From the IMG/VR virus record IMGVR_UViG_3300037502_000670, positions 1-58,760 of that record: 58,760 nt of DNA; one strand, 5' to 3'. The notes beneath the pieces are model-generated. The model was not told the origin of the DNA and did not search any database. It saw only the letters and a list, made by a program, of their open reading frames with translations. Both the position numbers and the translations under genes were made by a program. This DNA comes from a virus. Taxonomy: Duplodnaviria; Caudoviricetes. This document shows positions 1-31,503 of the stretch, one piece after another (the first letter of the stretch is position 1; every line of letters begins with the position of its first letter).

Positions 1-127
1 GGCGAAGCCCTTGATGCTGCCGAGAGCAAATTGCTCCGTGAAGCTGCCGGTATCACGGTCGCTGCCCGTAAGGAACTGTTCGACAAGATCGGCACTGTTA
101 CCGTGGACAAGGCGGGACGCGCCACTG
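1..127. repeat. Terminal direct repeat, identical to 58634-58760 (circular assembly overlap)
   Basis: GGCGAAGCCC...CGCCACTG occurs at both ends. The length of 127 equals a common assembler k-mer, and the reading frame continues across the junction. Confidence 0.95.
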
Positions 128-3100
128 TCTATACTGCGGATGATGCGGCCAAGGCTCTTCTTGGTCCGGCGGCTGCCCGCGCTGCTGCGGGTGGTGCTAC
201 TCAGGCTCAGGTTGGTGGCGCTGCTCTTGCCACGGGTCTGCAGAACTACGCTACTGGCGTAGCCGATCTGTTTGGTGAGAGCGTCGAGGGTGGTCAGCCT
301 GACCGGTTGATGGCTGCCCTTGGTGCCGTGCCTTATGCTGCTGCCGAGACGATCCCTGAATATCTTGCTGCTCTTCGTCTGTTCAAGGGTCTGGGTCTAA
401 AGGCCGCCCAGACTGGTGCAAGGGGTGGTCGTGCTGGCACGATTGCCACGAATGTCGGCATCGGCGCAGGTGCCGGTGCGGTCCTTGAGGGTGCAACTGA
501 AACCTTCCAAGAAGCCCTTGGCCTTGGCATGAACGCCGCTGTCGATGTCGATAGCCCCGAAGGTATCTCGCGTCTGCTCAATGCGTTTGCTGCCGGTGCC
601 GCCATCGGCGGCTTCATCGGTGGCGCGTCCAGCCTCAACACGGGCAAGGCCACTGATCTTCTGTCCGGCGGCACCAAGCCTGCCGAGCAGGGTGGCCAGA
701 CGCTTACCGGTGAAGTGATCCCGCCCGGTGGCCCGCGTCCTGTACCTACACCTGATGGTTCTGTCCCGCGCCTTGCTGCACCCACTGCGGAAGCACTTCC
801 GCCGCCTGCAGTTGGCATACCCGGTGGTATGGCCCCCGAGACAGCAGTGTCTCCCACCGTACCTCCGACACAGCCCAGTATGTTGTCGGCTCCCAGTCTT
901 CAGCTTCCGGCCCCGCCTGCTCCTGCGCAGGCTGCGCCCGCTGCGGCTGCGCCTCCTGTCATCCCCATGGGCGGACCGGCCACTGGTTCTGCGCTCCAGC
1001 AAGCCGCAGAGGGCACGCTAACTGGCGGTATTCCGACCGGACCCCTTGCCAATCGTCTCCTGCAGCAGCAGGCTGCAGCCCGCGAACAGGCCCGTCAGGC
1101 CCAGCTTCAGGCAACCAGTGGTTCTGCACTGGCGCGTATCGGTCGTGGTGAGGCTGTCGGTATGACACCGCCCGCCGCTGCTCCGCAGCAGCTTGAACTG
1201 CCGCTACCCGCTGGCAGGCAGAGACTTACTCGTGGAAAGAGAGGAGAGCCCAGTGCCGCTCAAGTCAGGCAAGTCGCAGAAAGTGATCAGCAGCAATATC
1301 CGCAAGATCGTACGCGAGTGGGAGGGCGACGGGTCAATCGGGTCGTCCCGACCGAAGTCCAAGCGGAAGGCCGTCCAGCAGGCGGTCGCAATCGCCTTGT
1401 CCAAGGCGCGCCCCCGGCCCAAGTCCAAGAAGCCCAGCAGCAGCCGAGGGCAGAGGTAACTGTTACCAAGACGAAGCGCGATCTGAAGCGCGGCGTCACT
1501 GTCGTTACCCTGTCCGATGGCCGCGAGGTTTCCATCTCCAAGGAGAAGGGCGGCGGTTCGTTCTTTGAGGGATGGTATCTTGAGGGTGTCGGCGGTCGTC
1601 CGTCCGAGCAGATGTCGCGTGGGTATCTGGGCACTACCCTTGAGGAAGCCAAGGCTGAGATTGCCAAGCGCGCAAGCGAAGGGCGACTGGAACAGCCTGC
1701 TGCACAGGCCCCGGCTCCCGCACCGGAACCGGCGGCACCGCCGAAGAAAGAACGCCAGCGCATTCCGAAGCTAAGCCTCAAGCCGGAAGAACCGAGCCCA
1801 AAAGCCGCAGGGGTCGCAGCCGCCCCCGCGCAAAAGGCTGAACCCTCCACCGCCCTGACGGTGGTGTCTGAGAACGAGCACTTCATCGAGCCTGAGGTCG
1901 AGGCAAAGATGAAGCGTGAGCAGGCCGAGCTTGCCGAGACCGAACGTCTTGCTACGCAGGACGATGCTGGTGAAGTCAATGACCTGATCGTGGCGCTCAA
2001 CACGCTGGACCCGGCGGATGTTGACTATCGTGATGCACTGTCGGCTCTGCTTGGTTTTGCCAAGGATAGCTCTGTCAACAAGGACGTGCGCAAGCGAGCG
2101 CAGGATTACCTTGAGAACGAGGTAGAACCCGAGGCCGTTAAGCTGGCTGAACGCTCCACGATGGAGCCTGTCTCACAGGCGGAACTCGACCGCAGCACTA
2201 TCGTTACCGCCATGGAGCAGTTCAACAACGGTGAGATCACCCTCACCCAGAAGATCGTCGGCGTCCTCGTATCGGCGTGGAAGCGCATCAAGCCGCTGAA
2301 CCTGACCTATGGCGACCAACCGCTGGCTGACTTCATCAAGGGCGGACCGCAGTTCTTCAACATCGAGAAGGGCAAGGTCGTCCCCAAGGGGCAGGGCCGC
2401 TACTCCACGACCATGTGGGATGTGGCAGACAAGCCGATGAATGTCGGCGCGATCAAGCTCAAGATCGGGAAGTTTGTTTCTGGCTTTGCATCCAAGCCCC
2501 AAGTCTACGTGTTCCGCAATCAGGCTGACCTCAAGGCGTCTGCCCCCAAGCTCTATGCCCGTGCTGCCGCTGGTCGCCCCGGCGACTTCGATACGGTAAA
2601 CGCTGCGGGCTACTCGCTTGGCAACGAAGTCATCATCTTCTCCGACCGTATCGGCAGCGACCAGCATCTGGCTTTCGTGCTGGCTCACGAAACGCTGGGC
2701 CACTTCGGTCTGCGTGCTCTCATGGGCGGCAGCGACTTCGACCGGGTGATGACCAAGCTCTATGACACGGACCCCCGTCTCAAGGCAGCAGTCGATGCTG
2801 CTATGGCAGTTCGCGGTCTGGGCAAGGCCGAGGCCGTCGAGGAGTATCTTTCAGACTATGCTGCCCAGCTTCACACCTCGCTGGTGCGCCGCATCTGGAA
2901 GTCCCTCAAGGGTGTTCTCAACCGGGTCGGTATCCAGTTTGGCGACGAGGCCACTCGCTACCTGCTCAGTCAGGCCAAGCGTTACGTCAAGACCGGCGAG
3001 CGCACTGGCGCGTTCAACACGTCTTCCGTTCTGCACCGCATGTGGGGTGTCGAGACTGGGCAGGTTGGCCGCTTCTCCGTGGTTGATGTCGCCAATGAGA

Positions 3101-6100
3101 ACGAGCGGCTGGCGGACTTCATCCGCCACACGAATGCTGTACCGCGCGACCTCAAGTCGGCAGGCAAGGTGCTGGGTGACGCAGCAACATCTTGGGACAA
3201 GTTCAAGGAGAAGGTGTTCAGCCTCGCCAACTATCAGGCGCTGCGGAACCCCGGCCTCTATGCGTTCGAGAAGCTGCTGGACGAAACCCGCCAGCGCGAG
3301 CAGTACGTGTACAACAAGTACAACGCCAAGCTGGAAAGCCTGCTCTACAAGTCCGAGGACCACCGCAACCGTGTCAGCCGGATGCTTCTGGGCGCGCGCA
3401 CCGTGGCGGTGTACCGCCTGCTGGAAAAGCCGCTTACGCTGGCTGAGCGCAACAAGGCGCTGTTCTCTCTGGATAATGACGGCAACCTGATTGCCGATGT
3501 CCGCGCCGTCGATGAGTTCATCAATCGCGGTATGCTGACGTTCGAGGAGATGCGCGATGGTGTCGAGTACACCCGCGAGATCATGTCTCCCGATGGCACC
3601 ATGGAGCGCCGCACCGAGAAGTTCCCCGGCTTTGCCGACCTGACGCAGGAGCAGTATGACGATTACGTGCTGTCGCGCCGGACCGTTGGCGAGGTTGAGA
3701 TGGAGCTTCTGGAAGCCAAGTATGCCAACATGCTCCACACCGAGGGTGTGTCCAAGAAGGCGATCCGCAAGCTGGTCAAGAACGGCAAGCTGGATGGTGA
3801 TGCCGAGAAGCTCGTAGACAAGACGCTCAACAAGTACAAAGAAATCTACGTGTCCGGCTACACGGTCGATGCCCGTGGTAATATCGCTCCGGGCCGCGAA
3901 GAGATCGACCGCGCCGATGAGTTCCTTGCGATGGTTAATCGCGCGCTGATCAGCGCCGATGCCAAGAACGACCCGGATGTCCGCGCCTTCTTCGATAACC
4001 AGTCGGACGCCGATGACTTCATGGTCAGCCTTGAGGATTTCCGCAGCAAGCGGAAGGTGCCGGACGGCGAGTTGACCTTCCTGTTCCAGAACGAGATCAA
4101 GCGCATCATCCTCGATGACGTGAGCCTTGGTGTCGAAGAAGAACGCGCCAAGCGTACCATGGCTGGCGGCTACGTCCCGGTCATCCGCGACAAGGCTTTC
4201 GAGATGCGGCTGCAGGCTTATGACGAGAACGGCAATCCGGTCCGTCTGCATGAGAACCACCGGGCACTGCTGAACTACAGCCAGTTCGACAACGCCAGTC
4301 AGGCAAGCAACGCTGCCGACATCCTCAACGCCGAGCTTGACGGCCAGACCATGGACGTTCTGGTTCAGCAGGATGACGGCAGCTACAAGCAGCAGACCGT
4401 GACAGTCCGCGCCGAGTTCGGTGAGGCGCTTTCGCAGGTGTCGGCTGACCCGGCACTGAACCTTGATGAGTTCATGCACGGCCTGCGGCTGTTCAAGATC
4501 AATCTGACACCTGACAAGATGTCTCTCGTCATTCGTACCCTGACCGAGGCAGGCGATCAGCTTCGTAAGCGCATGGAGTTCAGCAATACTCCGGGCTACG
4601 ACAAGGACAGCGGCGTGTTCGCCATGGCACGACATATCCAAATGCGTGCTGCCACCATCGCCAAAACGATCACTCGCCCGCGTATGCGCGACCTCATGGA
4701 CCGCAACAACAGCGAGAGCATGGACCTGTGGACCGGCGACCTTGGCGGGGTATTCTCCACCTACAACCGCTGGAACGCTGCGACTACCCCCGAGGAGAAG
4801 CAGCACTATCGCCACCAGCTTGACCACAAGCTGTTCATGTTTGCTGAAACATATCCCGGCGCGAAAGGCTGGGATGGATCGAAGGCAGGCTACGACCGGC
4901 TCAAGGCCGAGGGCAAGCTGCAGGAGTACAACTACAACCGGTTCTACAACTCAGCCCAGAGCACGCTGGACTTCCTCGACAACAACCGCTTCGTCACCGA
5001 GAGCAACTTCGGTGTGGGTCGTGTCGCGTCCGGCCTGCGGGCAGCAACCAGTATCTTCCAGCTTGGTGGCTCCATCGCGCAGGGCGTGATGAACATGGTG
5101 TCGCCTTACACCAACTGGCTACCGTATATGGCGAGCTACAACTCCCGCAACGGTTTCGGCGGCGGCTTCGGTGTCGGTCAGGTGATGGCTGCCTATCAGG
5201 TGGCGCTGAACCAAGTGGGTCTGCCCGGTATCGCGGGCACCAAGTTCAATACCGCTGAGTATTACGAAGCCCTGCTGAACGACCCGGCGGCGCTTGCCAA
5301 ATCCAACCTCACCCAAGAGGAAGCGGCCTTCCTCGCACTGGAAATCCGCGAAGGTAAACTTATCCCTGCTCAGTCGAACGCCCTGCTGGGCACTGCTCGT
5401 ACTGGGATTACCAACCGCTGGCTGCTGCGCGGCGTCGATGCGTTCATGCTGCCGTTCAACCGGACGGAACAGGCGTCTCGCCGTGCTGCCGGTCTCGCGG
5501 CTTTCCGTCTGGCAATGAAGCGCAACGGCGGTGATGTTGCCGCTGCCCGTGACTTCGCCATCCAGTCGCTCGACCTGACGCTGGGTGAATACTCCGTGCT
5601 GAACCGTCCGCCCGTGTGGCGCGATGGCATCCAGTCGTTCCTCTACATGTACAAGGTATATCCGACGACGACCATCCAGCTTCTGCGCCGCCTCGACAAG
5701 AAGGGCCAGATCATCATGCTGGGCACCTTGTGGCTATTCGCTGGTGTGACCGGCTTCCCCTTCGCAGAAGATATTGAAGACTTGGTTGACACCATTGCGC
5801 AGGCACTTGGGTTGCAGATGGGCAGTGTCCGGGCTGAGTTCGTAAAGATACTGGAGGGCCTTGCACCGGGCGTTTCGCCCTACGTGCTGAAGGGTGCCGT
5901 GAACACTGCCCTTGGTATCCCGGCTGACGTGGCTTCGCGGTTCAGCCAAGGTGACTTTATCCCCGGCTCCGGTCTGCTGCTGGCTGGTTCCACCATCGGT
6001 GAGGAAGTGAAGGACATCCTTGGACCCATGCCAGCCATGGTTCTTGGCGCAGCGACCTTCACCCGCGATATCGCGGCGGCTCCGTTCTCCGAGGGCCAGA

Positions 6101-6588
6101 CGTTTGTGGATGCGCTGCGGGCTTCGCCCGTTACGCTGGGCCGCATGTTTGGTGACACTTATGCCTACATGGCAACTGGTGCCATCGTTGACCGCCGTGG
6201 CTACGTGGTATCACCTGACATGACCATCGGCACGCTTGCCGCCCGTCTCATGGGCTTCTACCCCAAGGCAGCAGCCGAGCAGTATGACGCCATTCGTATC
6301 GCCAAGCGAGTGAACAACTACCAGAAAGAAATTGTGGCGGGCTACCGCACCGCTTGGGTACAGGCCATGCTCACTGGCAACCGGGCCTATGCCCGCCAGA
6401 TCGAACAGTCAGTGATCGAGTGGAACCGCGCAGCCAAGGGCACGCAGCTTGAGATTTCCAACTTCGTGAAGAATTCCCAGCGGGCTCTGAAGGAAGCACG
6501 GCGCAGCGCGGTCGAGCGTACGCTCAAGTCCACGAGTAAAGCAGGACGCGAGGAAGCGTCCCGCCTCATGGATCAGATGATCGAGTAG
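1..6588 (+). CDS. Giant internal virion/ejection (polyvalent-type) protein, C-terminal part; full gene join(57824..58633,1..6588), ~2465 aa
   Basis: Frame is open from base 1 and continuous with the ORF starting at 57824. It has a Gly/Ala-rich N-terminal region, a Pro/Ala linker and a zincin-like LAHETLGHFGL motif. It is the last gene of the ejection-protein block. Confidence 0.8.
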   Translation, partial: GEALDAAESKLLREAAGITVAARKELFDKIGTVTVDKAGRATVYTADDAAKALLGPAAARAAAGGATQAQVGGAALATGLQNYATGVADLFGESVEGGQPDRLMAALGAVPYAAAETIPEYLAALRLFKGLGLKAAQTGARGGRAGTIATNVGIGAGAGAVLEGATETFQEALGLGMNAAVDVDSPEGISRLLNAFAAGAAIGGFIGGASSLNTGKATDLLSGGTKPAEQGGQTLTGEVIPPGGPRPVPTPDGSVPRLAAPTAEALPPPAVGIPGGMAPETAVSPTVPPTQPSMLSAPSLQLPAPPAPAQAAPAAAAPPVIPMGGPATGSALQQAAEGTLTGGIPTGPLANRLLQQQAAAREQARQAQLQATSGSALARIGRGEAVGMTPPAAAPQQLELPLPAGRQRLTRGKRGEPSAAQVRQVAESDQQQYPQDRTRVGGRRVNRVVPTEVQAEGRPAGGRNRLVQGAPPAQVQEAQQQPRAEVTVTKTKRDLKRGVTVVTLSDGREVSISKEKGGGSFFEGWYLEGVGGRPSEQMSRGYLGTTLEEAKAEIAKRASEGRLEQPAAQAPAPAPEPAAPPKKERQRIPKLSLKPEEPSPKAAGVAAAPAQKAEPSTALTVVSENEHFIEPEVEAKMKREQAELAETERLATQDDAGEVNDLIVALNTLDPADVDYRDALSALLGFAKDSSVNKDVRKRAQDYLENEVEPEAVKLAERSTMEPVSQAELDRSTIVTAMEQFNNGEITLTQKIVGVLVSAWKRIKPLNLTYGDQPLADFIKGGPQFFNIEKGKVVPKGQGRYSTTMWDVADKPMNVGAIKLKIGKFVSGFASKPQVYVFRNQADLKASAPKLYARAAAGRPGDFDTVNAAGYSLGNEVIIFSDRIGSDQHLAFVLAHETLGHFGLRALMGGSDFDRVMTKLYDTDPRLKAAVDAAMAVRGLGKAEAVEEYLSDYAAQLHTSLVRRIWKSLKGVLNRVGIQFGDEATRYLLSQAKRYVKTGERTGAFNTSSVLHRMWGVETGQVGRFSVVDVANENERLADFIRHTNAVPRDLKSAGKVLGDAATSWDKFKEKVFSLANYQALRNPGLYAFEKLLDETRQREQYVYNKYNAKLESLLYKSEDHRNRVSRMLLGARTVAVYRLLEKPLTLAERNKALFSLDNDGNLIADVRAVDEFINRGMLTFEEMRDGVEYTREIMSPDGTMERRTEKFPGFADLTQEQYDDYVLSRRTVGEVEMELLEAKYANMLHTEGVSKKAIRKLVKNGKLDGDAEKLVDKTLNKYKEIYVSGYTVDARGNIAPGREEIDRADEFLAMVNRALISADAKNDPDVRAFFDNQSDADDFMVSLEDFRSKRKVPDGELTFLFQNEIKRIILDDVSLGVEEERAKRTMAGGYVPVIRDKAFEMRLQAYDENGNPVRLHENHRALLNYSQFDNASQASNAADILNAELDGQTMDVLVQQDDGSYKQQTVTVRAEFGEALSQVSADPALNLDEFMHGLRLFKINLTPDKMSLVIRTLTEAGDQLRKRMEFSNTPGYDKDSGVFAMARHIQMRAATIAKTITRPRMRDLMDRNNSESMDLWTGDLGGVFSTYNRWNAATTPEEKQHYRHQLDHKLFMFAETYPGAKGWDGSKAGYDRLKAEGKLQEYNYNRFYNSAQSTLDFLDNNRFVTESNFGVGRVASGLRAATSIFQLGGSIAQGVMNMVSPYTNWLPYMASYNSRNGFGGGFGVGQVMAAYQVALNQVGLPGIAGTKFNTAEYYEALLNDPAALAKSNLTQEEAAFLALEIREGKLIPAQSNALLGTARTGITNRWLLRGVDAFMLPFNRTEQASRRAAGLAAFRLAMKRNGGDVAAARDFAIQSLDLTLGEYSVLNRPPVWRDGIQSFLYMYKVYPTTTIQLLRRLDKKGQIIMLGTLWLFAGVTGFPFAEDIEDLVDTIAQALGLQMGSVRAEFVKILEGLAPGVSPYVLKGAVNTALGIPADVASRFSQGDFIPGSGLLLAGSTIGEEVKDILGPMPAMVLGAATFTRDIAAAPFSEGQTFVDALRASPVTLGRMFGDTYAYMATGAIVDRRGYVVSPDMTIGTLAARLMGFYPKAAAEQYDAIRIAKRVNNYQKEIVAGYRTAWVQAMLTGNRAYARQIEQSVIEWNRAAKGTQLEISNFVKNSQRALKEARRSAVERTLKSTSKAGREEASRLMDQMIE
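1253..1459 (+). CDS. Overprinted small basic protein (68 aa, MPLKSGKSQKVISSNIRK...KAVQQAVAIALSKAR) nested in an alternative frame of the giant gene
   Basis: GAGGAG SD at 1241-1246 lies 6 nt before GTG 1253. The product resembles the widespread phage MPLKxGKSxKxISxNI...QAVAIALS small-protein family. Confidence 0.7.
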   Translation: MPLKSGKSQKVISSNIRKIVREWEGDGSIGSSRPKSKRKAVQQAVAIALSKARPRPKSKKPSSSRGQR

Positions 6589-9429: not shown

Positions 9430-9456
9430 AGGGTCGTCTCCCGTTGGTGCTATCGG

Positions 9457-9485
9457 AACGAAAGGGGGAGCCGCGACACTCCCCC
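9457..9485 (-). terminator. GC hairpin with short U-rich tail upstream of the primase (terminator/attenuator or processing site)
   Basis: Minus strand reads GGGGGAG-TGTCGCGG-CTCCCCC-TTTCGTT. Confidence 0.5.
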
Positions 9486-9497
9486 AACCGTGTGATG

Positions 9498-10755: not shown

Positions 10756-10776
10756 GTTGTTCTCCTGTAATGAGCG

Positions 10777-11466: not shown

Positions 11467-11489
11467 AGTTCCTTCTCCTGTTGGCAAAC

Positions 11490-13046
11490 TTATTTATTCA
11501 TTTCTTGCTGGATCAGATCGAGCAGGAGACCCTGCATCTTCTGCTTACCAGCAAGTCTATCGAACACCTTCTTTTCTAGCAGGGTGCTTTGAATGTGGAC
11601 CACGTTTGATACGTGGCGCTTCCCGATACGCTCCACACGTCCATTGGCCTGTGTGTACTGCTCATTGCTTGCAATGGGTCCATACCAAATGACGGTGGAT
11701 GCTGCAGTAAGCGTGAGGCCGTGAGCCATTGTAGCAGGGTGAGCGATGAGTACTTTAGGATCAGCGGCGTGCTGGAAGTTATAGAATATCTGGTCACGAG
11801 CTGATGACGATACCGCGCCATTGACCGTAGCCACAGTCCATTGTTTCGACAGTTCGCGTTCGAGCATTTTGAGCGTGCCCGTGAGCGGCACAAACACGAT
11901 GACTTTACCCCCAGCTTCCTCAATGACTTCTTTAACTGCTGCCACGCGGGGTCCACAGTCGAGTTCAATGTGATTACCGTCTTCGCCATAGGCTACTCCG
12001 CAAGCGATCTGGATCAGCTTCATCATCTTCACGGCTTCGTTGACCGCCGTGATGGTGCCATCGGCACCGCCTGTCTCCGTGATGAGATGCTTCAGCATCT
12101 GCTTGTAATGATGCTCTTGGTCCTTGGTCAGTGGTACCTCACGGGTCTGCAGCACGGTATCAGGCAGATCGAAACACTCATCGCGGGTGAACCTGACTGA
12201 CGGCTGCAGGATATGCTTGACGATCTCTGGTGCATCAGGACGAGCAATGTATTTATACATGCTGATCTTCATCATGACCTGATCTCTGAACGCAGTGTAT
12301 GTCTTCGTGCAGAACGGACTGTCGATCAGCTTCGCCAGAGCCCACGCATCGGTGGGTTCATTCGGTGTCGGCGTGCCTGTCATCAGCCACAGGCGCATCT
12401 TGGGTTCCTTCTCCAGCCACTTGCGGAACGACTTGAACCGCTTGGTCGTGGGGTTCCGCAGCACCGCCGCTTCATCCACGATGATGAGGTCGAACATGCC
12501 ATGCGCTTCCGGCGCGATGATGGGGAAGCCATCATGGTTGATGACGTAGAAGTCTGCGTTCTGGCGCAGCAGTTTCTTTCTGCGCTCGGCTGTGCCGTGC
12601 AGCACCACTGCCCTGCGATGGGTCAGGTTCATGTAGACAGCGTCACCCCAGACGCGCTCCAGTGTGGAGAGCGGCGACATGATGAGCACCTTGCTCACGG
12701 CACCTGTCTCGATCAGGTAGTCTGCCGCCCACAGGGCGCTCTGGGTTTTGCCAGTGCCGATCTCGTTGAGTACCAGTCCCTTGCGGTTGACCGTGAGGAA
12801 GGCAGCCGTGTCCTGTTGGTGCTGGTATGGCTTGAACCGACCCGGCCAGTCGTAGTGGTAGAGGATGGGCGAGGGTGCGCCGATACCCAGATTGTTAAGG
12901 GCCTCGACTTCCTCGACCTTGTGGGGTGTGACCACCACCTCCTGCCCACGTATGTTTACACGCTGCGCCGTGGGGATGCTGGCAAGCACCCGCTCCGGGT
13001 TGTTAAGTTTGAGAGCCAGCGCCTTGGCGGATGGAAGCACCAGCAT
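11490..13046 (-). CDS. SNF2-family (SF2) helicase
   Basis: EIGTGKT, IIVDEA, MTGTP, HGLTL and QANGRVERIG motifs. Confidence 0.9.
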   Translation of the reverse strand: MLVLPSAKALALKLNNPERVLASIPTAQRVNIRGQEVVVTPHKVEEVEALNNLGIGAPSPILYHYDWPGRFKPYQHQQDTAAFLTVNRKGLVLNEIGTGKTQSALWAADYLIETGAVSKVLIMSPLSTLERVWGDAVYMNLTHRRAVVLHGTAERRKKLLRQNADFYVINHDGFPIIAPEAHGMFDLIIVDEAAVLRNPTTKRFKSFRKWLEKEPKMRLWLMTGTPTPNEPTDAWALAKLIDSPFCTKTYTAFRDQVMMKISMYKYIARPDAPEIVKHILQPSVRFTRDECFDLPDTVLQTREVPLTKDQEHHYKQMLKHLITETGGADGTITAVNEAVKMMKLIQIACGVAYGEDGNHIELDCGPRVAAVKEVIEEAGGKVIVFVPLTGTLKMLERELSKQWTVATVNGAVSSSARDQIFYNFQHAADPKVLIAHPATMAHGLTLTAASTVIWYGPIASNEQYTQANGRVERIGKRHVSNVVHIQSTLLEKKVFDRLAGKQKMQGLLLDLIQQEMNK

Positions 13047-17186: not shown

Positions 17187-17347
17187 CAGGGTTTCTCTCC
17201 TGTAATAATGCGATACCTGTGCCGCAGCATTTGATAATCCATTCTAACGTCGGACAGTTTCCAAGACATAACCACATAGACAACGCCACCAGCCGTCCAA
17301 CCGGCAGATATGCAGTACCAGAGTACTTCCCAGATTGAGAACGTCAT
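17186..17347 (-). CDS. Small membrane protein (53 aa)
   Basis: MTFSIWEVLWYCISAGWTAGGVVYVVMSW; overlapping start/stop codons. Confidence 0.5.
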   Translation of the reverse strand: MTFSIWEVLWYCISAGWTAGGVVYVVMSWKLSDVRMDYQMLRHRYRIITGEKP

Positions 17348-20753: not shown

Positions 20754-20808
20754 TCGCAGCCTCTCCTGTTGGTGCTGGGCGGGGGTCTGACTACCCCCGC
20801 CCGTTTTG

Positions 20809-21960
20809 TTACATGCGGACAACTTCACCCCACGGGGCCTTGTCCGCACCATTGGTCACCCACAGCACAGGATGCTCCGGTGCAGGACCAAAGTCATCGC
20901 AGTACAGGTCGGTGAGGAACACGGTCGCCACCGGGTTGATGTTATGTTCCGTCATGTAGCGGAACACCGGGCTGAACGCCGTACCACCGCCGCCATGGGG
21001 AGCAATGGTTGCATCATCGCCACGCTCAAACTTATCGTAGTGACACACGGTGCTGTCGAAGTAGATCACATGAGCCTTGACCGGACACATGTCCTCCCAG
21101 ATTGCACGGAACTCGGCAGCGAACTCGTTCAACTCCTTCTCGCCCACTGAACCGGAGCAGTCGATGGCAACAGCCACCTCACCCAGCACCTCACCGCTGA
21201 TGGATGGCAGGTACATTCCCATGGCAGCCATACGCCTGTTGGGCTTGGCCCATGACCGGGTGTCGTTCTTCTGGCGCTGCACGAACTTACGCAGCACTTC
21301 ACGCCAGTCCACCTTGGGCTGGAGCGTTTGCGACACAAGCCGTTCCATGCCAGCGGAGAGCTTGCCCATCATCTTGGCAGCTTGCGCTGCCTGAGCCACC
21401 CGAACGCGCATCTCGGCCTGTTCCTGCGCTACTTCAGCGGGTGAACCCTCGGCTTCCACCACGTCATCGCCCGTACCGGGAATGGGGTTACCACCGGACT
21501 GACCACCGCCTTGACCGCCACTACCATTGCCTTCCGGAGGTTCCGGCAAGATGTCATAGATACCATCCGTGGTGCCCTTGCCAGCGTCGTATGTCGCCTT
21601 GTTGAGCAAGCCACCGGGAATAAATTTCCCGATCTTCTCGTCGGTGAGAAGCTGGTTGATGACGTAATCGCCAGCCATGTTCCACTTCTTGTGGTTGCGA
21701 CCCTTCACGCGGTAGTTGTGCTCGAACATGGGATGGAACACCTCATGCGCCATGAGAAACTTAAGCTGCTCGTCGTCCAGTTCCTCGCAGAACTTGGGGT
21801 TGAACTCGATCCACTTGCCATTGGTGGCAGCGGTGGGAAAGCGTTCGCTCACCCGCAATTCGAGGTTCAGTGCCAGCGTGCCGATAAACGGCTGTTCAAG
21901 GACCAGTGCGGTCCTTGCCTTGGCAAGGCGCTTTTCGAGGGGCATTGTGTTGTGTTTCAT
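20809..21960 (-). CDS. DUF2201-type metallopeptidase-vWA protein
   Basis: TAATNG, HEVFH (HExxH), Gly-rich linker, MIDAS DCSGS, GGGGT and FLTD motifs. Confidence 0.88.
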   Translation of the reverse strand: MKHNTMPLEKRLAKARTALVLEQPFIGTLALNLELRVSERFPTAATNGKWIEFNPKFCEELDDEQLKFLMAHEVFHPMFEHNYRVKGRNHKKWNMAGDYVINQLLTDEKIGKFIPGGLLNKATYDAGKGTTDGIYDILPEPPEGNGSGGQGGGQSGGNPIPGTGDDVVEAEGSPAEVAQEQAEMRVRVAQAAQAAKMMGKLSAGMERLVSQTLQPKVDWREVLRKFVQRQKNDTRSWAKPNRRMAAMGMYLPSISGEVLGEVAVAIDCSGSVGEKELNEFAAEFRAIWEDMCPVKAHVIYFDSTVCHYDKFERGDDATIAPHGGGGTAFSPVFRYMTEHNINPVATVFLTDLYCDDFGPAPEHPVLWVTNGADKAPWGEVVRM

Positions 21961-22387: not shown

Positions 22388-23235
22388 TGCCCCATGAACA
22401 CAGCCATGCGGTCCATGATTTCCTTGGCCTTGGCAGCGGTGTCACGCCGCAGGTCAGGGTCATTACGCAGTGCATCGGGGTGATACGAGATCAGCTTGCT
22501 CTCCACCTCACGGCGCATCTGCTCCAGTGTCGGATCATCAGCGAAGTTAAGCCGGGGAAGCAACTCACAGAGTTCACGGGCGTTCTCCAGCATTGTGTCA
22601 CGGAACACCGCGCTGGGATTGGCAAGACGCTCCTCAATATGTTTCACCTTGTCGTAGAGACGCTGCCATACGTCCTTCATTGCGGAAGCACTTGCTTCCT
22701 GCACCCGGCGCTCCACGTCCTGTTGGATACGCGATAGCTCCTCACTGGCAATGCTGACACGGAAGTCATTGGACGGAACCGGGAACACCGCGAGGTCCAT
22801 CTTGAACTTGCGGTCGATATTGTCAGGGTGCGGATAGTCGTTGGCGTCGAACAACGGGCCAAGGGTGCGCTTGGCATCGTTAATGTAGCTTTCGTAGTTC
22901 ATGGTGAACTGTGTCACCAGCCATTGCCATTCGGACTTCTTCTTGCGGAAGCTGGTCATAAACTCGAGATAGTTGGACGTGGGCAGCAACTGCGTGCCTT
23001 CGATGCCCCACGGCAACGTGTTGTCGTAGAACTCACCACGGATTTGATTGGCCTTGCGGTGGACCAGATCAAGCTGGTCATTCATGGGCAGCAAGGACTT
23101 GTTATACCGACCGACAATGGCATCCACGCCATTGCTGTCAGCCACCTCCTTGGTGGCCCGCTTGTCGAACTTACGGGCTGTCCACTGGCTGATGTTCAAC
23201 TGCACCAGCAATGCTCTGTCGTTGAGGTTCATCAC
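22384..23235 (-). CDS. DUF3150-like protein associated with MoxR/vWA modules
   Basis: LNISQWTARK, TLPW and DYP motifs, helical C-half, located between the AAA+ and vWA genes. Confidence 0.6.
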   Translation of the reverse strand: MMNLNDRALLVQLNISQWTARKFDKRATKEVADSNGVDAIVGRYNKSLLPMNDQLDLVHRKANQIRGEFYDNTLPWGIEGTQLLPTSNYLEFMTSFRKKKSEWQWLVTQFTMNYESYINDAKRTLGPLFDANDYPHPDNIDRKFKMDLAVFPVPSNDFRVSIASEELSRIQQDVERRVQEASASAMKDVWQRLYDKVKHIEERLANPSAVFRDTMLENARELCELLPRLNFADDPTLEQMRREVESKLISYHPDALRNDPDLRRDTAAKAKEIMDRMAVFMGQ

Positions 23236-24945: not shown

Positions 24946-24971
24946 TCTATGTGTTTCCTGTTGGTTGTTGT

Positions 24972-25023
24972 GGTCTCATCAGGCGGTGCATGACACCGCG
25001 ACCGCCGCTAGGCGGTTTCGACC
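24972..25023 (-). ncRNA. Type II hammerhead ribozyme
   Basis: GGUC-GAAA-CCGCC(UAGC)GGCGG-UC^GCGGUG(UCAUG)CACCGC-CUGAUGA-GACC. All core nucleotides, three perfect stems and a GUC triplet are present, in an intergenic position. Confidence 0.9.
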
Positions 25024-26902: not shown

Positions 26903-26950
26903 GTGTTCCACTCCTGTTGAGGTAGAGGGGCGGTTTCCCGCCCCTCCCGT

Positions 26951-27124: not shown

Positions 27125-27183
27125 AGGCAATTCTCCTGTTGGGTTGATTGTGGGAGGGGTCCGGAGACCCCTCCCGTTCCTGC

Positions 27184-28666: not shown

Positions 28667-30058
28667 ATGGCACTTGAGATAGACTATACGCCTCCGAAGA
28701 CGGGCAAGCTGTTCATGGAGTGCGATGCAAGGATGCGCGTGCTCATGGGCCCGGTGGGCTCCGGCAAGTCGGTCACCTGCTCGTTCGAGATCATCCGCCG
28801 GGCGTCCATGCAAAAGCCAGACGCATCTGGCCGCAGGCGCAGCCGCTGGGCCATCGTGCGTGAAACCGCACGGCAGTTGCAGGATACGACGATAAAGACG
28901 TTCCTCGACTGGTTCCCGCCGGGGCCGTGCGGGCAGTTCATGCGCACGACGAAGACCTACTTTTTCAAGGTCGGGGATGTCGAGGCAGAGATCATGTTCC
29001 GCGCATTGGATGACGCGGATGACGTGGCGAACCTGAACTCGCTGGAGTTGACAGGCGCGTGGTTCAACGAGTGCCGGGATATTGACCCGGCGATTGTCGA
29101 TGCGATGTCAAAGCGTATCGGTCGTTTTCCCAGTGCCAAGGATGGCGGGCCGTCGTGGTTTGGGATGTGGGGGGATACCAACCCGCCGACCATGGATACG
29201 TGGTGGTACTACCAGCTTGAGCATCTGGACCCCACGGACGGGGTGAGCCTCAACGACAATGGCTGGGAAGTGTTCAAGCAGCCGTCTGGTCGCAGTATTT
29301 ACGCCGAGAATATCGAGAACCTGCCGGAAGGGTACTATGACACACAGGGCCGATCCGAAGAATATATCCGTGTGTACATTGACGGCGAATATGGCCTTAG
29401 CCTCGCTGGTATGCCTGTCTACAAGTATTTCCGGCCTGACTACCATATGGCTGGCGAACGTCTCAGGGCTTTCACTGGCGGTACTCGGCCTGTCGTCGTC
29501 GGTATGGACTTGGGGCTTACCCCCGCAGCAGTCATCGGACAGCAGGACCCGCGCGGACGCGCGCTGATAATGGCCGAGTGCGTCAGCTACGACATGGGTA
29601 TCCAGCGATTTGTCCGGACGATGCTCAAGCCGTTGCTGTATGAGCGGTTTTCGGGATGCCCCGTGCTCGTAGTGGTTGACCCGGCAGGTACGGCGAGGGC
29701 GCAGACGGACGAGCGCAGCGCGGTTGACATCGTGAAAGCCGAGGGGTTGCGGGTCATTCCGGCGCGGACGAACGCCATCAGTGCGCGTATCTCGGCAGTG
29801 GATGACTACCTCATGCGGCAGGTCGATGGCGACCCGGCATTCATCGTGGACCCGTCATGCACACACCTCAAGGCGGCGATGATGGGTGGGTACCGGTACA
29901 AGCCAACAGGTGACAACGCCATCGACAAGAACAAGCACTCGCACGTTGCTGAAGCCCTGCAATATCTTTGTCTGCATTTGAGCAATGCCAGCGGCGATTT
30001 CATGTACCAGACGCTCAAGCGCGACATTCGCCCGGTTGTCTCTGCAGGATGGACTTGA
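28667..30058 (+). CDS. terL: Terminase large subunit
   Basis: GPVGSGKS, WFNE, DTNPP, GMDLG and SHVAEALQY motifs. Confidence 0.93.
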   Translation: MALEIDYTPPKTGKLFMECDARMRVLMGPVGSGKSVTCSFEIIRRASMQKPDASGRRRSRWAIVRETARQLQDTTIKTFLDWFPPGPCGQFMRTTKTYFFKVGDVEAEIMFRALDDADDVANLNSLELTGAWFNECRDIDPAIVDAMSKRIGRFPSAKDGGPSWFGMWGDTNPPTMDTWWYYQLEHLDPTDGVSLNDNGWEVFKQPSGRSIYAENIENLPEGYYDTQGRSEEYIRVYIDGEYGLSLAGMPVYKYFRPDYHMAGERLRAFTGGTRPVVVGMDLGLTPAAVIGQQDPRGRALIMAECVSYDMGIQRFVRTMLKPLLYERFSGCPVLVVVDPAGTARAQTDERSAVDIVKAEGLRVIPARTNAISARISAVDDYLMRQVDGDPAFIVDPSCTHLKAAMMGGYRYKPTGDNAIDKNKHSHVAEALQYLCLHLSNASGDFMYQTLKRDIRPVVSAGWT

Positions 30059-30088
30059 CTTGCGGCGGGCGGTGTAGCATTCTCGTCC

Positions 30089-30176
30089 TGCCGGGGGGTT
30101 ATGTCCACCCATCCCTCGGCACACACCTCCTCCCCTGTTGGAACTTGCCCCGGTAGCCGCCGCTACCGGGGTTTTT
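30089..30176 (+). ncRNA. Putative small regulatory RNA (5' hairpin, anti-SD seed, terminator)
   Basis: TTGACT-N17-CATTCT at 30055-30083; 11-bp hairpin 30089-30121; single-stranded CCTCCTCCCCTGTTGG; terminator 30148-30176. Confidence 0.65.
30148..30176 (+). terminator. Rho-independent terminator
   Basis: CCCCGGTAGC-CGCC-GCTACCGGGG-TTTTT. Confidence 0.85.
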
Positions 30177-30246
30177 ATGCTGTTGCATAGCGCGCGCAGT
30201 TGGTGTACCGTGGGGCAGACTGACCATAACCACAAGGGTTTAGCCG

Positions 30247-30600
30247 ATGGCGACCGTCTCTCCTGCATTCAGTTTTGTTCAGGCGCAGTCTGCCAAGGTG
30301 CCTCGGACCGTGTGGAGCGGTATCGTCACGGGCGATACGATTGAGCCGTTCATCGTCGTGGCGCAGGCGGCTGTGGCCGGGTGTGTGCAGATCGGCGGTA
30401 CGTTCGGTGGTGCCACGGTTGGCTTGCAAGCGTCGAACGACGGCGTGACTTACTTCGACATCAAGGATTTGGGCGGTACGGTCGTCAGTGCCTCGTCGGC
30501 GGCGCTGTTCGAGTTCACGACGGCTGCGGTCTATCTGCGACCGATTGTGACGGGTGGTTCGGCCAATGCCATTACCGTGACCTTGGTGATGCGAGGCTGA
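30247..30600 (+). CDS. Beta-rich virion-associated protein
   Basis: GTFGGATVGLQASNDGVTY pattern common in phage structural proteins. Confidence 0.6.
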   Translation: MATVSPAFSFVQAQSAKVPRTVWSGIVTGDTIEPFIVVAQAAVAGCVQIGGTFGGATVGLQASNDGVTYFDIKDLGGTVVSASSAALFEFTTAAVYLRPIVTGGSANAITVTLVMRG

Positions 30601-30601
30601 C

Positions 30602-30727
30602 GTGCTGAACATCGTCCTGATCATGCGGCGGGTACGGAGGCAGACATCGGCTCTGCTGAACAACCTGCTGTCTGAGGACGGTGACGACCTGCTGCAAGAA
30701 GACGGCACGTATATCCTGCTGGAGTAG
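30602..30727 (+). CDS. 41-aa protein with LLxEDG repeats
   Basis: LLSEDGDDLLQEDGTYILLE; fills the gap between genes. Confidence 0.55.
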   Translation: MLNIVLIMRRVRRQTSALLNNLLSEDGDDLLQEDGTYILLE

Positions 30728-30729
30728 CG

Positions 30730-31503
30730 ATGGGTGTTCTGCTTAAAAATAACACCTCTAGCCTGCTGGTCGGTTCGGTCAGTGCGGGTACTACGTCCGT
30801 CGTGGTGACGACTGGCGCTGGCGCTGGCTTTCCTGCCGTTGGCGTGGGTGATTATTTCTATGCAACGCTTGTCAGTCCCACGGGGCTTTACGAGATTGTT
30901 AAGTGTACGGCACGGGTCAATGACGTGCTGACCATCGTGCGGGCGCAGGAAGGCACTGTTGCCATTCCGTTCCCAGACGGCAGCCGGATCGACCTGCGGG
31001 TCACTGCCCAGTCCGTGATTGACGCCATTGCCGACCGTGTGGCACTAAAAGATCAGGCATCCGAGATCAGCTTCGCCCCCACTGGCACCATCAGCGCGAC
31101 CAACGTGCAGGACGCCATTGTCGAGATTTCCTCAGCTTCCGAGATCAGTTTTACACCTACGGGGTCAATATCCTCCACCAACGTGCAGAACGCCATTGTC
31201 GAGGTGGCGAATGAGCACGACGACGCTGCCGAGATCAGCATCGCTGATGCAGGAGGGTATTATACCGGGACGAACGTTGAGGCTGCGCTGCAGGAACTTC
31301 GCGCGGTCAGTCTGAATACTTTTACCGGTAACGGCTCCACGGTGAACTTTACCATATCTGCAACTTATGGATTGGAAAACCTTACAAGCGTGCATATCAA
31401 TGGTGTGTATCAGCATAAGGCGACATACTCGCTGTCCGGCACGACCCTGACGTTTTCTGAAGCACCGCCTGTCAACTCGATCATCGAAGTCCTTGTGAGG
31501 TAA
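30730..31503 (+). CDS. Tail fibre-related protein with shared N-terminal anchor domain
   Basis: N-terminal domain paralogous to 33926 and 36122; TNVQxAIVE repeats. Confidence 0.7.
   Translation: MGVLLKNNTSSLLVGSVSAGTTSVVVTTGAGAGFPAVGVGDYFYATLVSPTGLYEIVKCTARVNDVLTIVRAQEGTVAIPFPDGSRIDLRVTAQSVIDAIADRVALKDQASEISFAPTGTISATNVQDAIVEISSASEISFTPTGSISSTNVQNAIVEVANEHDDAAEISIADAGGYYTGTNVEAALQELRAVSLNTFTGNGSTVNFTISATYGLENLTSVHINGVYQHKATYSLSGTTLTFSEAPPVNSIIEVLVR

Follow-up and report, generated by a model that had tools for sequence, protein, structure and literature searches.

What is specified by the short segment that follows the large terminase gene (terL) in the phage genome IMGVR_UViG_3300037502_000670? 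The window analyzed is this whole IMG/VR virus record of 58,760 bases, which has direct terminal repeats and a completeness rating of 100%. It looks like the genome of an uncultured freshwater phage with a virulent type of gene layout and no close cultured relative. An original prediction, made from the DNA letters alone, had proposed that the segment encodes a trans-acting small RNA (sRNA) that silences a regulon of early genes through a box common to their ribosome-binding sites (RBSs). Here, "early" designates the minus-strand gene block and "late" the plus-strand block, both labels being inferred from gene content. Judged from its sequence, the locus is probably a phage-borne sRNA gene resembling those of SorX and SorY of Rhodobacter sphaeroides, and its seed is complementary to a phased box found in several early leaders. 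The reading that combines both aspects, a SorX/SorY-like trans-acting sRNA directed at the phage early leaders and at host messenger RNAs (mRNAs), is tentative, with a probability of roughly 0.45.

Anatomy of the locus

The elements announced by the original prediction, a promoter-like TTGACT-N17-CATTCT, an 11-bp hairpin, an unpaired stretch and a terminator, are all present in the expected order and place (30055-30177; Table 1). The fold of the locus reaches -42.5 kcal/mol (z = -3.63), and none of 200 shuffled sequences folds as well. The 89-nucleotide (nt) transcript modeled from the predicted promoter gives z = -3.72 and likewise leaves the seed open. The 5' hairpin exposes a C-rich loop that contains UCCACCC, and the stem of the last hairpin is followed by UUUUUAU (sequence TTTTTATG), the signature of an intrinsic, Rho-independent terminator.

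The fold also bears on the proposal that the segment is a cis-acting element of the 3' untranslated region (UTR), which would pair with the terL/terS mRNA or with the G-rich stretch 30061-30077 and thereby adjust how stable, or how well translated, its own transcript is. It is true that 30061-30077 and part of the seed are base-paired in the minimum-energy fold when longer read-through contexts are considered. However, this G-rich partner is not conserved in relatives, and a context of 192 nt folds no better than its shuffles (z = -0.47). Moreover, the terL start region has no Shine-Dalgarno (SD) sequence to sequester, and the duplex amounts to only -15.6 kcal/mol. Such a role in cis is very improbable.

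Two other candidates were examined in the 5' hairpin and rejected. The first was a second seed located in the loop, but its complement GGGTGGA is found 10 times where 7.7 are expected, and 30 of 100 shuffles reach 10. The second was a peptide encoded by a 29-codon frame starting at the loop ATG, a frame that has no counterpart in the related phage L147.

A seed module shared with bacterial sRNAs

A focused Rfam search of 351 nt returns only two models with E below 0.01, ar14 (RF02344) and SorX (RF02784), both being sRNAs with a seed-terminator module. The ar14 score is the best of the window, 31.1 bits (E 3e-4) for a gathering score of 58.8; SorX reaches 22.2 bits (E 0.0036) for a gathering score of 46.6, and SorY (RF02651) 18.7 bits (E 0.15) for a gathering score of 111. 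In the relatives L002, L003, and L004, the SorX scores amount to 24-25 bits.

The seed itself is widespread. A pattern search of viral contigs retrieves the same 16-17 seed bases between a hairpin and a terminator in many unrelated contigs. Three IMG/VR "viral" contigs that are no relatives of the phage (L127 1859-1935, L142 4569-4642, and L151 1808-1894) contain SorX above its gathering score and with this seed; they may represent prophage or host flank. The 17-mer CCTCCCTGTTGGAMCTT occurs in 90 copies in a collection of species-representative genomes, and downstream of 52 of these copies lie a strong hairpin and a T-run. Among 80 titled entries harboring this 17-mer, 41 bear Rhodobacterales-type names, the order being read from the titles; Pseudorhodobacter, Tabrizicola, Cypionkella, and Gemmobacter are examples. 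The complement of the seed, searched as an exact 12-mer, is found at two to three loci per genome in five of five Rhodobacterales genomes. These 12-mer matches were considered as host targets and rejected, as they look like complements of the sRNA genes themselves. To note, pairs of seed complements lie 120-140 nt apart in two Rhodobacterales genomes (G021:C6, 3218 and 3359; G019:C1, 142667 and 142787), a spacing that suggests tandem sibling sRNA genes.

A covariance model, R1, was derived from 46 bacterial copies of the seed, linker, and terminator. It matches the window at 30125-30178 (+) with 23.9 bits (E ~0.004), the sole significant match in 58.7 kb on both strands, the next one being at 9.5 bits (E 4.2). 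The copies used to train R1 were collected by means of the seed 17-mer, and the model holds only two base pairs, because the terminators did not align in RNAalifold. R1 is hence nearly structure-free and close to a sequence profile, and it therefore tests sequence more than structure.

According to a review (PMC9438474), SorX, an Hfq-dependent sRNA of R. sphaeroides, represses potA and is derived from a 3' UTR, that of the OmpR-type gene RSP_0847, from which it is cut and matured by RNase E. The window RNA resembles SorX by its 5' hairpin, its single-stranded seed of the ACCUCCCUGUUGGA type, its short linker ending in CUU, its G+C-rich terminator, and its U-tail, and it is also located at the 3' end of a protein gene. 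As in SorX, the unpaired seed stands between hairpin and terminator, although the window reads ACCUCCUCCCCUGUUGGA, with extra bases in the C/U run (CCUCC-UCC-CCUGUUGG); the exact SorX seed ACACCUCCCUGUUGGAACUU is found in the relative G001 (L110). The hairpin of the window RNA is longer than that of SorX and unrelated to it, and the linker is AACUU instead of ACCUU. Furthermore, the window RNA follows terL rather than RSP_0847 and seems to possess its own promoter.

SorY is another Hfq-dependent sRNA of R. sphaeroides, which represses takP: its nucleotides 39-75 pair with positions -44 to -7 of takP, point mutations weaken the control, and Hfq is needed (PMC4615379). The window RNA displays the same seed and linker (CAUACCUCCCUGUUGGACUU) ahead of the terminator, and in SorY the takP leader is bound by this part immediately upstream of its start codon; the 5' domains differ. 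With ar14, a multi-hairpin alphaproteobacterial sRNA, it has in common the CCUCCUCCC motif and the terminator. However, ar14 comprises three hairpins with CCUCCUCCC loops, while the window RNA possesses a single 5' hairpin followed by an unpaired seed, and the alignment contains long gaps. The Betaproteobacteria toxic small RNA (RF02278) and anti-hemB (RF02837) also combine a short C/U-rich anti-SD stretch with a terminator, but their seeds are different, of the UGUCACCUCC type, and the window scores only 15.9 bits for a gathering score of 50.

The window RNA thus lies outside SorX/SorY by Rfam criteria; it shares their seed module and differs in genetic context. The alphaproteobacterial anti-SD group named in the original prediction is the right one, although the module is that of SorX/SorY and not that of cuckoo/CcsR or AbcR.

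Conservation behind terL

Judged by TerL, the phage has at least 599 relatives in IMG/VR, the best 80 of which were taken for comparison. Seed, linker, and terminator are kept in eight further sequences of the wider clade (L147, L159, L108, L110, L104, L157, L141, and L290), with TerL identities of 80-90%, while the sequence between terL and the seed has strongly diverged. In these eight sequences and in the window, the 110 nt preceding the seed contain exactly one TTGNNN-N17-[TC]ANNNT, in five sequence variants overall, for a background rate of 0.05 expected per sequence. This geometry, kept in nine of nine members, is the best argument for a putative separate promoter. The motif UCCACCC is found in the 5' hairpin loop of the window, L147, and L290, on stems that differ. 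For L157 and L141, a cis helix is predicted between the seed GUUGG and a CCAAC or CCGAC lying upstream, which leaves CCUCCC in a hairpin loop, as in ar14-type RNAs.

These data allow weighing a simpler explanation, namely that the segment is a plain terminator of the terL operon with a pyrimidine-rich spacer, yielding no separate RNA and having no function in trans. Its likeness to sRNAs would then be that of any C/U-rich stretch ahead of a terminator. The position at the operon end agrees with this explanation, as do the weak promoter, the sub-threshold Rfam scores, and the presence of a terminator in the same place in 62 of 77 relatives. It does not account for a 16-17-nt stretch, linker included, that equals a bacterial sRNA seed and is kept while its flanks diverge, nor for a structured 5' hairpin with a conserved loop between promoter and seed. 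The promoter geometry common to the nine members and the fact that R1 matches no other terminator of the window also argue against it, making a plain terminator distinctly improbable.

Complementarity to the early-gene leaders

The six boxes of Table 1 end 10-11 nt before a start codon, and their last bases therefore form the SD sequence. The minus-strand boxes quoted in the original prediction, including the weaker ACAGGAG boxes at 10762, 17197, 20570, and 23240, have correct coordinates. With a 25-nt seed, the predicted duplexes of the six leaders range from -14.5 to -21.6 kcal/mol. The box at 20760-20772 pairs with the seed through 12 of its 13 bases, yielding -24.5 kcal/mol with a 28-nt seed and -21.1 kcal/mol with the 25-nt seed; the duplex of the primase/helicase box amounts to -21.1 kcal/mol.

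Several counts indicate that these matches exceed chance. CCAACAGG is present in 11 copies, compared to 2.30 ± 1.41 in 100 shuffles (maximum 6); seven copies are on the minus strand within the early block, four of these at start regions. ACAGGAG is present in 14 copies, 13 of them on the minus strand, compared to 6.86 ± 2.37 in shuffles, 2 of 100 of which attain 14. A set of 73 start regions (35 early, 38 late) was compiled from rough gene calls, some starts being corrected by hand. Stretches of at least eight contiguous complementary bases are found in 5 of 35 early and 0 of 38 late start regions, in agreement with the earlier statement that late-gene RBSs lack the box. Four of these five regions are CCAACAGG boxes, and the fifth, AGGAGGTG, matches the anti-SD part of the seed. 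The mean duplex energy is -14.8 kcal/mol for early and -11.6 kcal/mol for late regions (Mann-Whitney p = 0.004). When the anti-SD head is kept and the 13-nt tail shuffled, 6 of 300 shuffled tails produce at least five such regions among the early starts, and 10 of 300 attain the mean duplex energy observed for the early set. With the 25-nt seed, the top seven of the 73 regions by duplex energy are all early, and the six named leaders rank 3, 4, 5, 11, 15, and 19.

In the related genome G001, three leaders retain the box, namely those of the first early gene, the ATPase gene, and the small open reading frame (ORF) that precedes the VWA gene, while the surrounding hairpins and spacers differ. 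This genome harbors seven reverse and one forward copies of CCAACAGG, versus none of a control word. In G002-G005, whose element lacks CUGUUGG, one to four copies of CCAACAGG occur without the strand bias of G001. The early-gene complementarity is real, phased, and enriched, though modest.

The resemblance of the boxed leaders to the locus itself leads to a further explanation, in which the minus strand would carry a copy of an early leader, composed of hairpin, spacer, CCAACAGG-GGAGG, and start, for the expression of an ORF (ATG 30113 to 29855) that lies antisense to terL, the plus-strand complementarity being a by-product of the duplication. The succession of hairpin, 6 nt, CCAACAGGGGAGGAGG, 13 nt, and ATG is much like that of the early leaders, and the frame is open into terL. 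This explanation fails because a U-run after the hairpin exists only on the plus strand, and because G001, L147, and G002 have no start codon at a usable distance after the box. The bacterial sRNA match is also on the plus strand, and a minus-strand leader is hardly credible.

Table 1. Coordinates of the RNA locus, of the leader boxes, and of the main genes in the window
Feature	Position	Strand	Remarks
-35-like hexamer TTGACT	30055-30060	+	overlaps the terL stop codon TGA (30056-30058)
-10-like hexamer CATTCT	30078-30083	+	after a 17-nt spacer; weak, 3/6 to TATAAT
Predicted 5' hairpin, 10-11 pairs	30089-30121	+	30089-30099 with 30111-30121; loop UAUGUCCACCC
Predicted single-stranded seed CACACCUCCUCCCCUGUUGGAACUU, ~25 nt	30122-30146	+	unpaired in the centroid
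Seed core CCUCCUCCCCUGUUGG	30126-30141	+	aligns to the SorX/SorY seed ACCUCCCUGUUGGA and to model R1
Intrinsic terminator and U-run	30147-30177	+	stem-loop 30147-30172: 11 pairs, 8 G-C, loop of 4
Box CCAACAGG(AGA)	27135-27142	-	first early gene, 57 amino acids (start 27124); 10 nt to its ATG
Box (U)CAACAGGAG	26911-26919	-	small ORF (start 26902); 10 nt to its ATG
Box CCAACAGG	24957-24964	-	11 nt before the ATG of the 351-amino-acid ATPase gene (start 24945; phrog_1297, E 1.8e-56)
Box CCAACAGGAGAGG (CCAACAGG at 20765-20772)	20760-20772	-	before a 62-amino-acid ORF (start 20753) preceding the DUF2201/VWA gene
Box CCAACAGGAGA (CCAACAGG at 11477-11484)	11474-11484	-	10 nt before the ATG of a 132-amino-acid gene (start 11466); duplex -21.6 kcal/mol
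Box CCAACGGGAGA (CCAACGGG at 9440-9447)	9437-9447	-	DUF927 primase/helicase (start 9429); 10 nt to its ATG; one G-U in the duplex with the seed
Giant frame, at least 2195 amino acids	1-6588	+	runs off the record start
Minus-strand block	6589-27142	-	DUF927 primase/helicase, SNF2 helicase, family A DNA polymerase, DUF2201/VWA protein, ATPase
Structural block	from ~27148	+	terL (28667-30058), tail-fiber genes
terL, large terminase	28667-30058	+	ORF; phrog_2 match, E 8.5e-28

Possible mode of action

In the combined reading, an RNA of ~88 nt would be produced from ~30090-30177 (+), starting at its own weak sigma-70-type promoter that overlaps the end of terL, possibly also by read-through from terL, and ending at the intrinsic terminator. 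This RNA would be related to the SorX/SorY group of Rhodobacterales, or would mimic it, and would rely on Hfq like the members of that group, a use with which its U-tailed terminator and its free seed are compatible. Its free anti-SD seed CCUCCUCCCCUGUUGG would pair in trans with RBS regions of the form (C/U)CAAC(A/G)GGAG and block 30S binding. The phage targets would be the first early gene, the small ORF, the ATPase, the ORF before the VWA gene, the 132-amino-acid gene, and the primase/helicase; on the host side, the targets would be the mRNAs controlled by the host's own SorX/SorY-type RNAs. Since the RNA is located in the late-gene block, it would damp the early and replication genes late in infection. 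Such an RNA-based early-to-late switch is plausible but unproven.

Several results weigh against the combined reading. Every Rfam match of the element is below its gathering score, and a search of the whole window at gathering score yields no match. A consensus promoter scan of the locus does not call TTGACT-N17-CATTCT, because CATTCT fits TATAAT at 3/6 positions only; the promoter guess of the original prediction thus gains from the geometry kept in the clade and loses from its weak -10 hexamer. A search of sequencing runs found no RNA run with the phage on record. One run labeled RNA-Seq (X8) was judged "probably DNA", and the contigs of X8, X2, and X3 that cover 29880-30911 with few differences say nothing on expression.

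The target side is also affected. When both strands are scanned without restriction for duplexes with the 28-nt seed, the leaders are not outstanding among G-rich coding sites, the best one being about 30th at -24.5 kcal/mol, behind such sites. The ranking of the early leaders above background, expected from the original prediction, is hence observed among the 73 start regions but not in the unrestricted scan. The bare anti-SD 8-mer also favors early start regions (-6.8 versus -5.1 kcal/mol), and stronger SD sequences of early genes explain part of the early/late contrast. Among 13 genomes, stretches of at least nine complementary bases number 12 over 13 cognate and 69 over 156 non-cognate pairs, a noisy tally of our own that relies on a crude gene caller; pattern counts of the box types were noisy as well. 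As the window and G001 are close relatives, the boxes they share are not independent events. Finally, G006 (TerL 80%), with an identical seed, has neither CCAACAGG nor ACAGGAG in ~17 kb of early region, and therefore the seed does not need the boxes. The predicted cis pairing of GUUGG in the G006 clade may offer a reason for their absence. Altogether, the silencing of an early regulon in trans is backed by the sRNA anatomy and the leader complementarity, and is called into question by G006 and by the unrestricted scan.

The G006 case fits better with a role restricted to the host. In that case, the SorX/SorY-like RNA would copy a host sRNA program aimed at transporter or other mRNAs, and the match with the phage leaders would be secondary: the leaders may have evolved for the host's own sRNAs, or may merely share a favored RBS context. 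Across clades, the seed hardly departs from its bacterial counterpart, and the presence of two to three seed loci in each of the five Rhodobacterales genomes identifies it as a host regulatory currency. G006 keeps this seed without any box, and L157 and L141, which are predicted to pair GUUGG in cis, would present the CCUCCC part alone in a loop. Conversely, a purely host-directed RNA leaves unexplained why enrichment and phasing of the box are restricted to the clade with a free seed, why the box is kept against diverged flanks in G001, and why it is absent from 38/38 late start regions. There is also only a small chance that an 8-mer enriched in leaders independently equals part of the seed. 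A host-only role is therefore rated as rather unlikely, and the combined reading is preferred.

Relation to known phage sRNAs

Base-pairing RNAs have been described in a few temperate phages of enterobacteria, and a 2025 review regards the field as still largely unexplored (PMC12197685). The phage and prophage trans-acting sRNAs DicF, StxS, AgvB, and IsrK are described there as short, terminator-ended, base-pairing, and often using Hfq (PMC12197685). Lambda PreS is presented as a phage-encoded trans-acting sRNA in a preprint (10.1101/2024.10.31.621285). The window RNA resembles these five RNAs in being phage-encoded, short, and closed by a terminator, and pairing is predicted for it; they differ from it in belonging to temperate phages of enterobacteria. 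Among the examples covered by the accessible text of the review, there is no RNA with a seed copied from a host sRNA family, AgvB doing the opposite by mimicking a target, and none is aimed at a shared box in the early leaders of its own phage (PMC12197685).

A literature search did not find any phage-borne SorX/SorY-like RNA. Base-pairing phage RNAs are a known kind; what would be new here is the apparent copy of a host seed that also matches a box of the phage's own early leaders. A virulent-looking phage appears to carry a copy of a validated host sRNA seed and, if this is true, a virus would have borrowed a post-transcriptional regulator of its host. The match of the same seed with the phased box of the early leaders provides a testable RNA mechanism for turning down early genes once the late genes are on. 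The element also points to freshwater Rhodobacterales as likely hosts of this phage family, which has numerous IMG/VR relatives and no close cultured member.

Elements behind terL in the other clades

Among the 77 relatives with at least 150 nt after terL, 62 display a pyrimidine motif of the anti-SD type, then a stable hairpin and a T-run, whereas in 9 of the 77 the next gene directly follows terL, without any such element. The 62 elements represent 40 distinct sequences, most of which have other seeds, of the UGUCACCUCC or UUCACUCCC type. In L006-L081 and in genomes G002-G005 and G009-G014, the post-terL seeds are for instance UGUCACCUCCCC, UGUCACCCUCC, and UUCACUCCC. The elements of these other clades often contain a second hairpin with the loop UCUCCUUC and co-varying stems, and most show a -10-like TAnnnT at the terL stop codon, either overlapping it or immediately after it. 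In 3 of 10 loci searched (L067, L053, and L009), the best matches are weak ones to the betaproteobacterial toxic sRNA and anti-hemB, at 27-30 bits, below the gathering score of 50. The UGUCACCUCC seeds presumably resemble the 3' tail of 16S rRNA.

Some of these elements match the early start regions of their own genome. In G002 and G003, GGAGTGAAC stands ahead of three starts; the start regions at 17293 of G002 (minus strand) and 5522 of G003 read CCTCGATCAGA-N8-GGAGTGAAC-ATG, with blocks of 11 and 9 nt complementary to the phage's own element. In G009, the variant seed CACCCUCC meets the start region GAGGGTGACA. These matches are only suggestive, because each of them contains the SD core.

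A more ambitious reading joins four propositions. A large freshwater phage family would keep a slot for an sRNA gene directly behind terL. The seed would be exchanged between clades and would copy host seeds, CCUCCCUGUUGG (SorX/SorY-type) in the window and UGUCACCUCC in others. The clade of the window would have rebuilt at least six early RBSs with a matching box 10-11 nt before the start. The late RNA would shut the early and replication genes and at once impose the host photo-oxidative-stress sRNA program on host mRNAs. That all four propositions hold together is unlikely.

Hairpins and hammerhead-like elements near the boxes

G+C-rich hairpins devoid of a U-run are observed 4-25 nt upstream of boxed RBSs on the minus strand, at ~20778-20802, 27151-27175, 26924-26947, and 9466-9487. 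On the opposite strand, the hairpin near 20778 is then followed by GUUUUGUU. Such leader hairpins may serve as processing sites, stabilizers, or terminators of antisense transcripts. Copies of CCAACAGG are also located inside early coding regions, at 12812-12819, 21235-21242, and 22719-22726 (-), an ATG being found 4 nt after the copy at 21235-21242.

A type II hammerhead-like element (GAAAC ... GUC ... CUGAUGAG) is located at 24959-25023 (-), directly upstream of the ATPase leader, and its 3' tail runs into the CCAACAGG box. It scores 25.2 bits, with E 0.28 over the 21 kb searched, the gathering score being 37. The early region of L157 (genome G006) contains Hammerhead_II matches at 2230-2304, 3366-3439, and 3773-3839 (-), two of them above the gathering score (46.4 and 41.0 bits) and one below (33.8 bits), and intergenic hammerheads therefore seem to be a trait of the family. 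In the window, only the box of the ATPase gene adjoins a hammerhead, which is sub-threshold. A circuit joining the sRNA with ribozyme and hairpin modules, as imagined in the original prediction, is a conjecture.

The phage genome and its relatives

The giant frame at the beginning of the window (1-6588) has no Pfam-A match; since it runs off the record start, it continues across the terminal repeat. Among cultured phages, the best TerL identities are 42% with Pseudomonas phage Rollin and 40% with the Rhizobium RHph_TM phages. These phages have only 9-16 nt after terL, hence no such element there.

Contig L290 (G016:C246), 31.8 kb long and without the early region, encodes a TerL 88% identical to that of the window, followed by the same sRNA-like element. 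It is binned in a metagenome-assembled genome labeled Armatimonadia and is probably a phage contig that was mis-binned.

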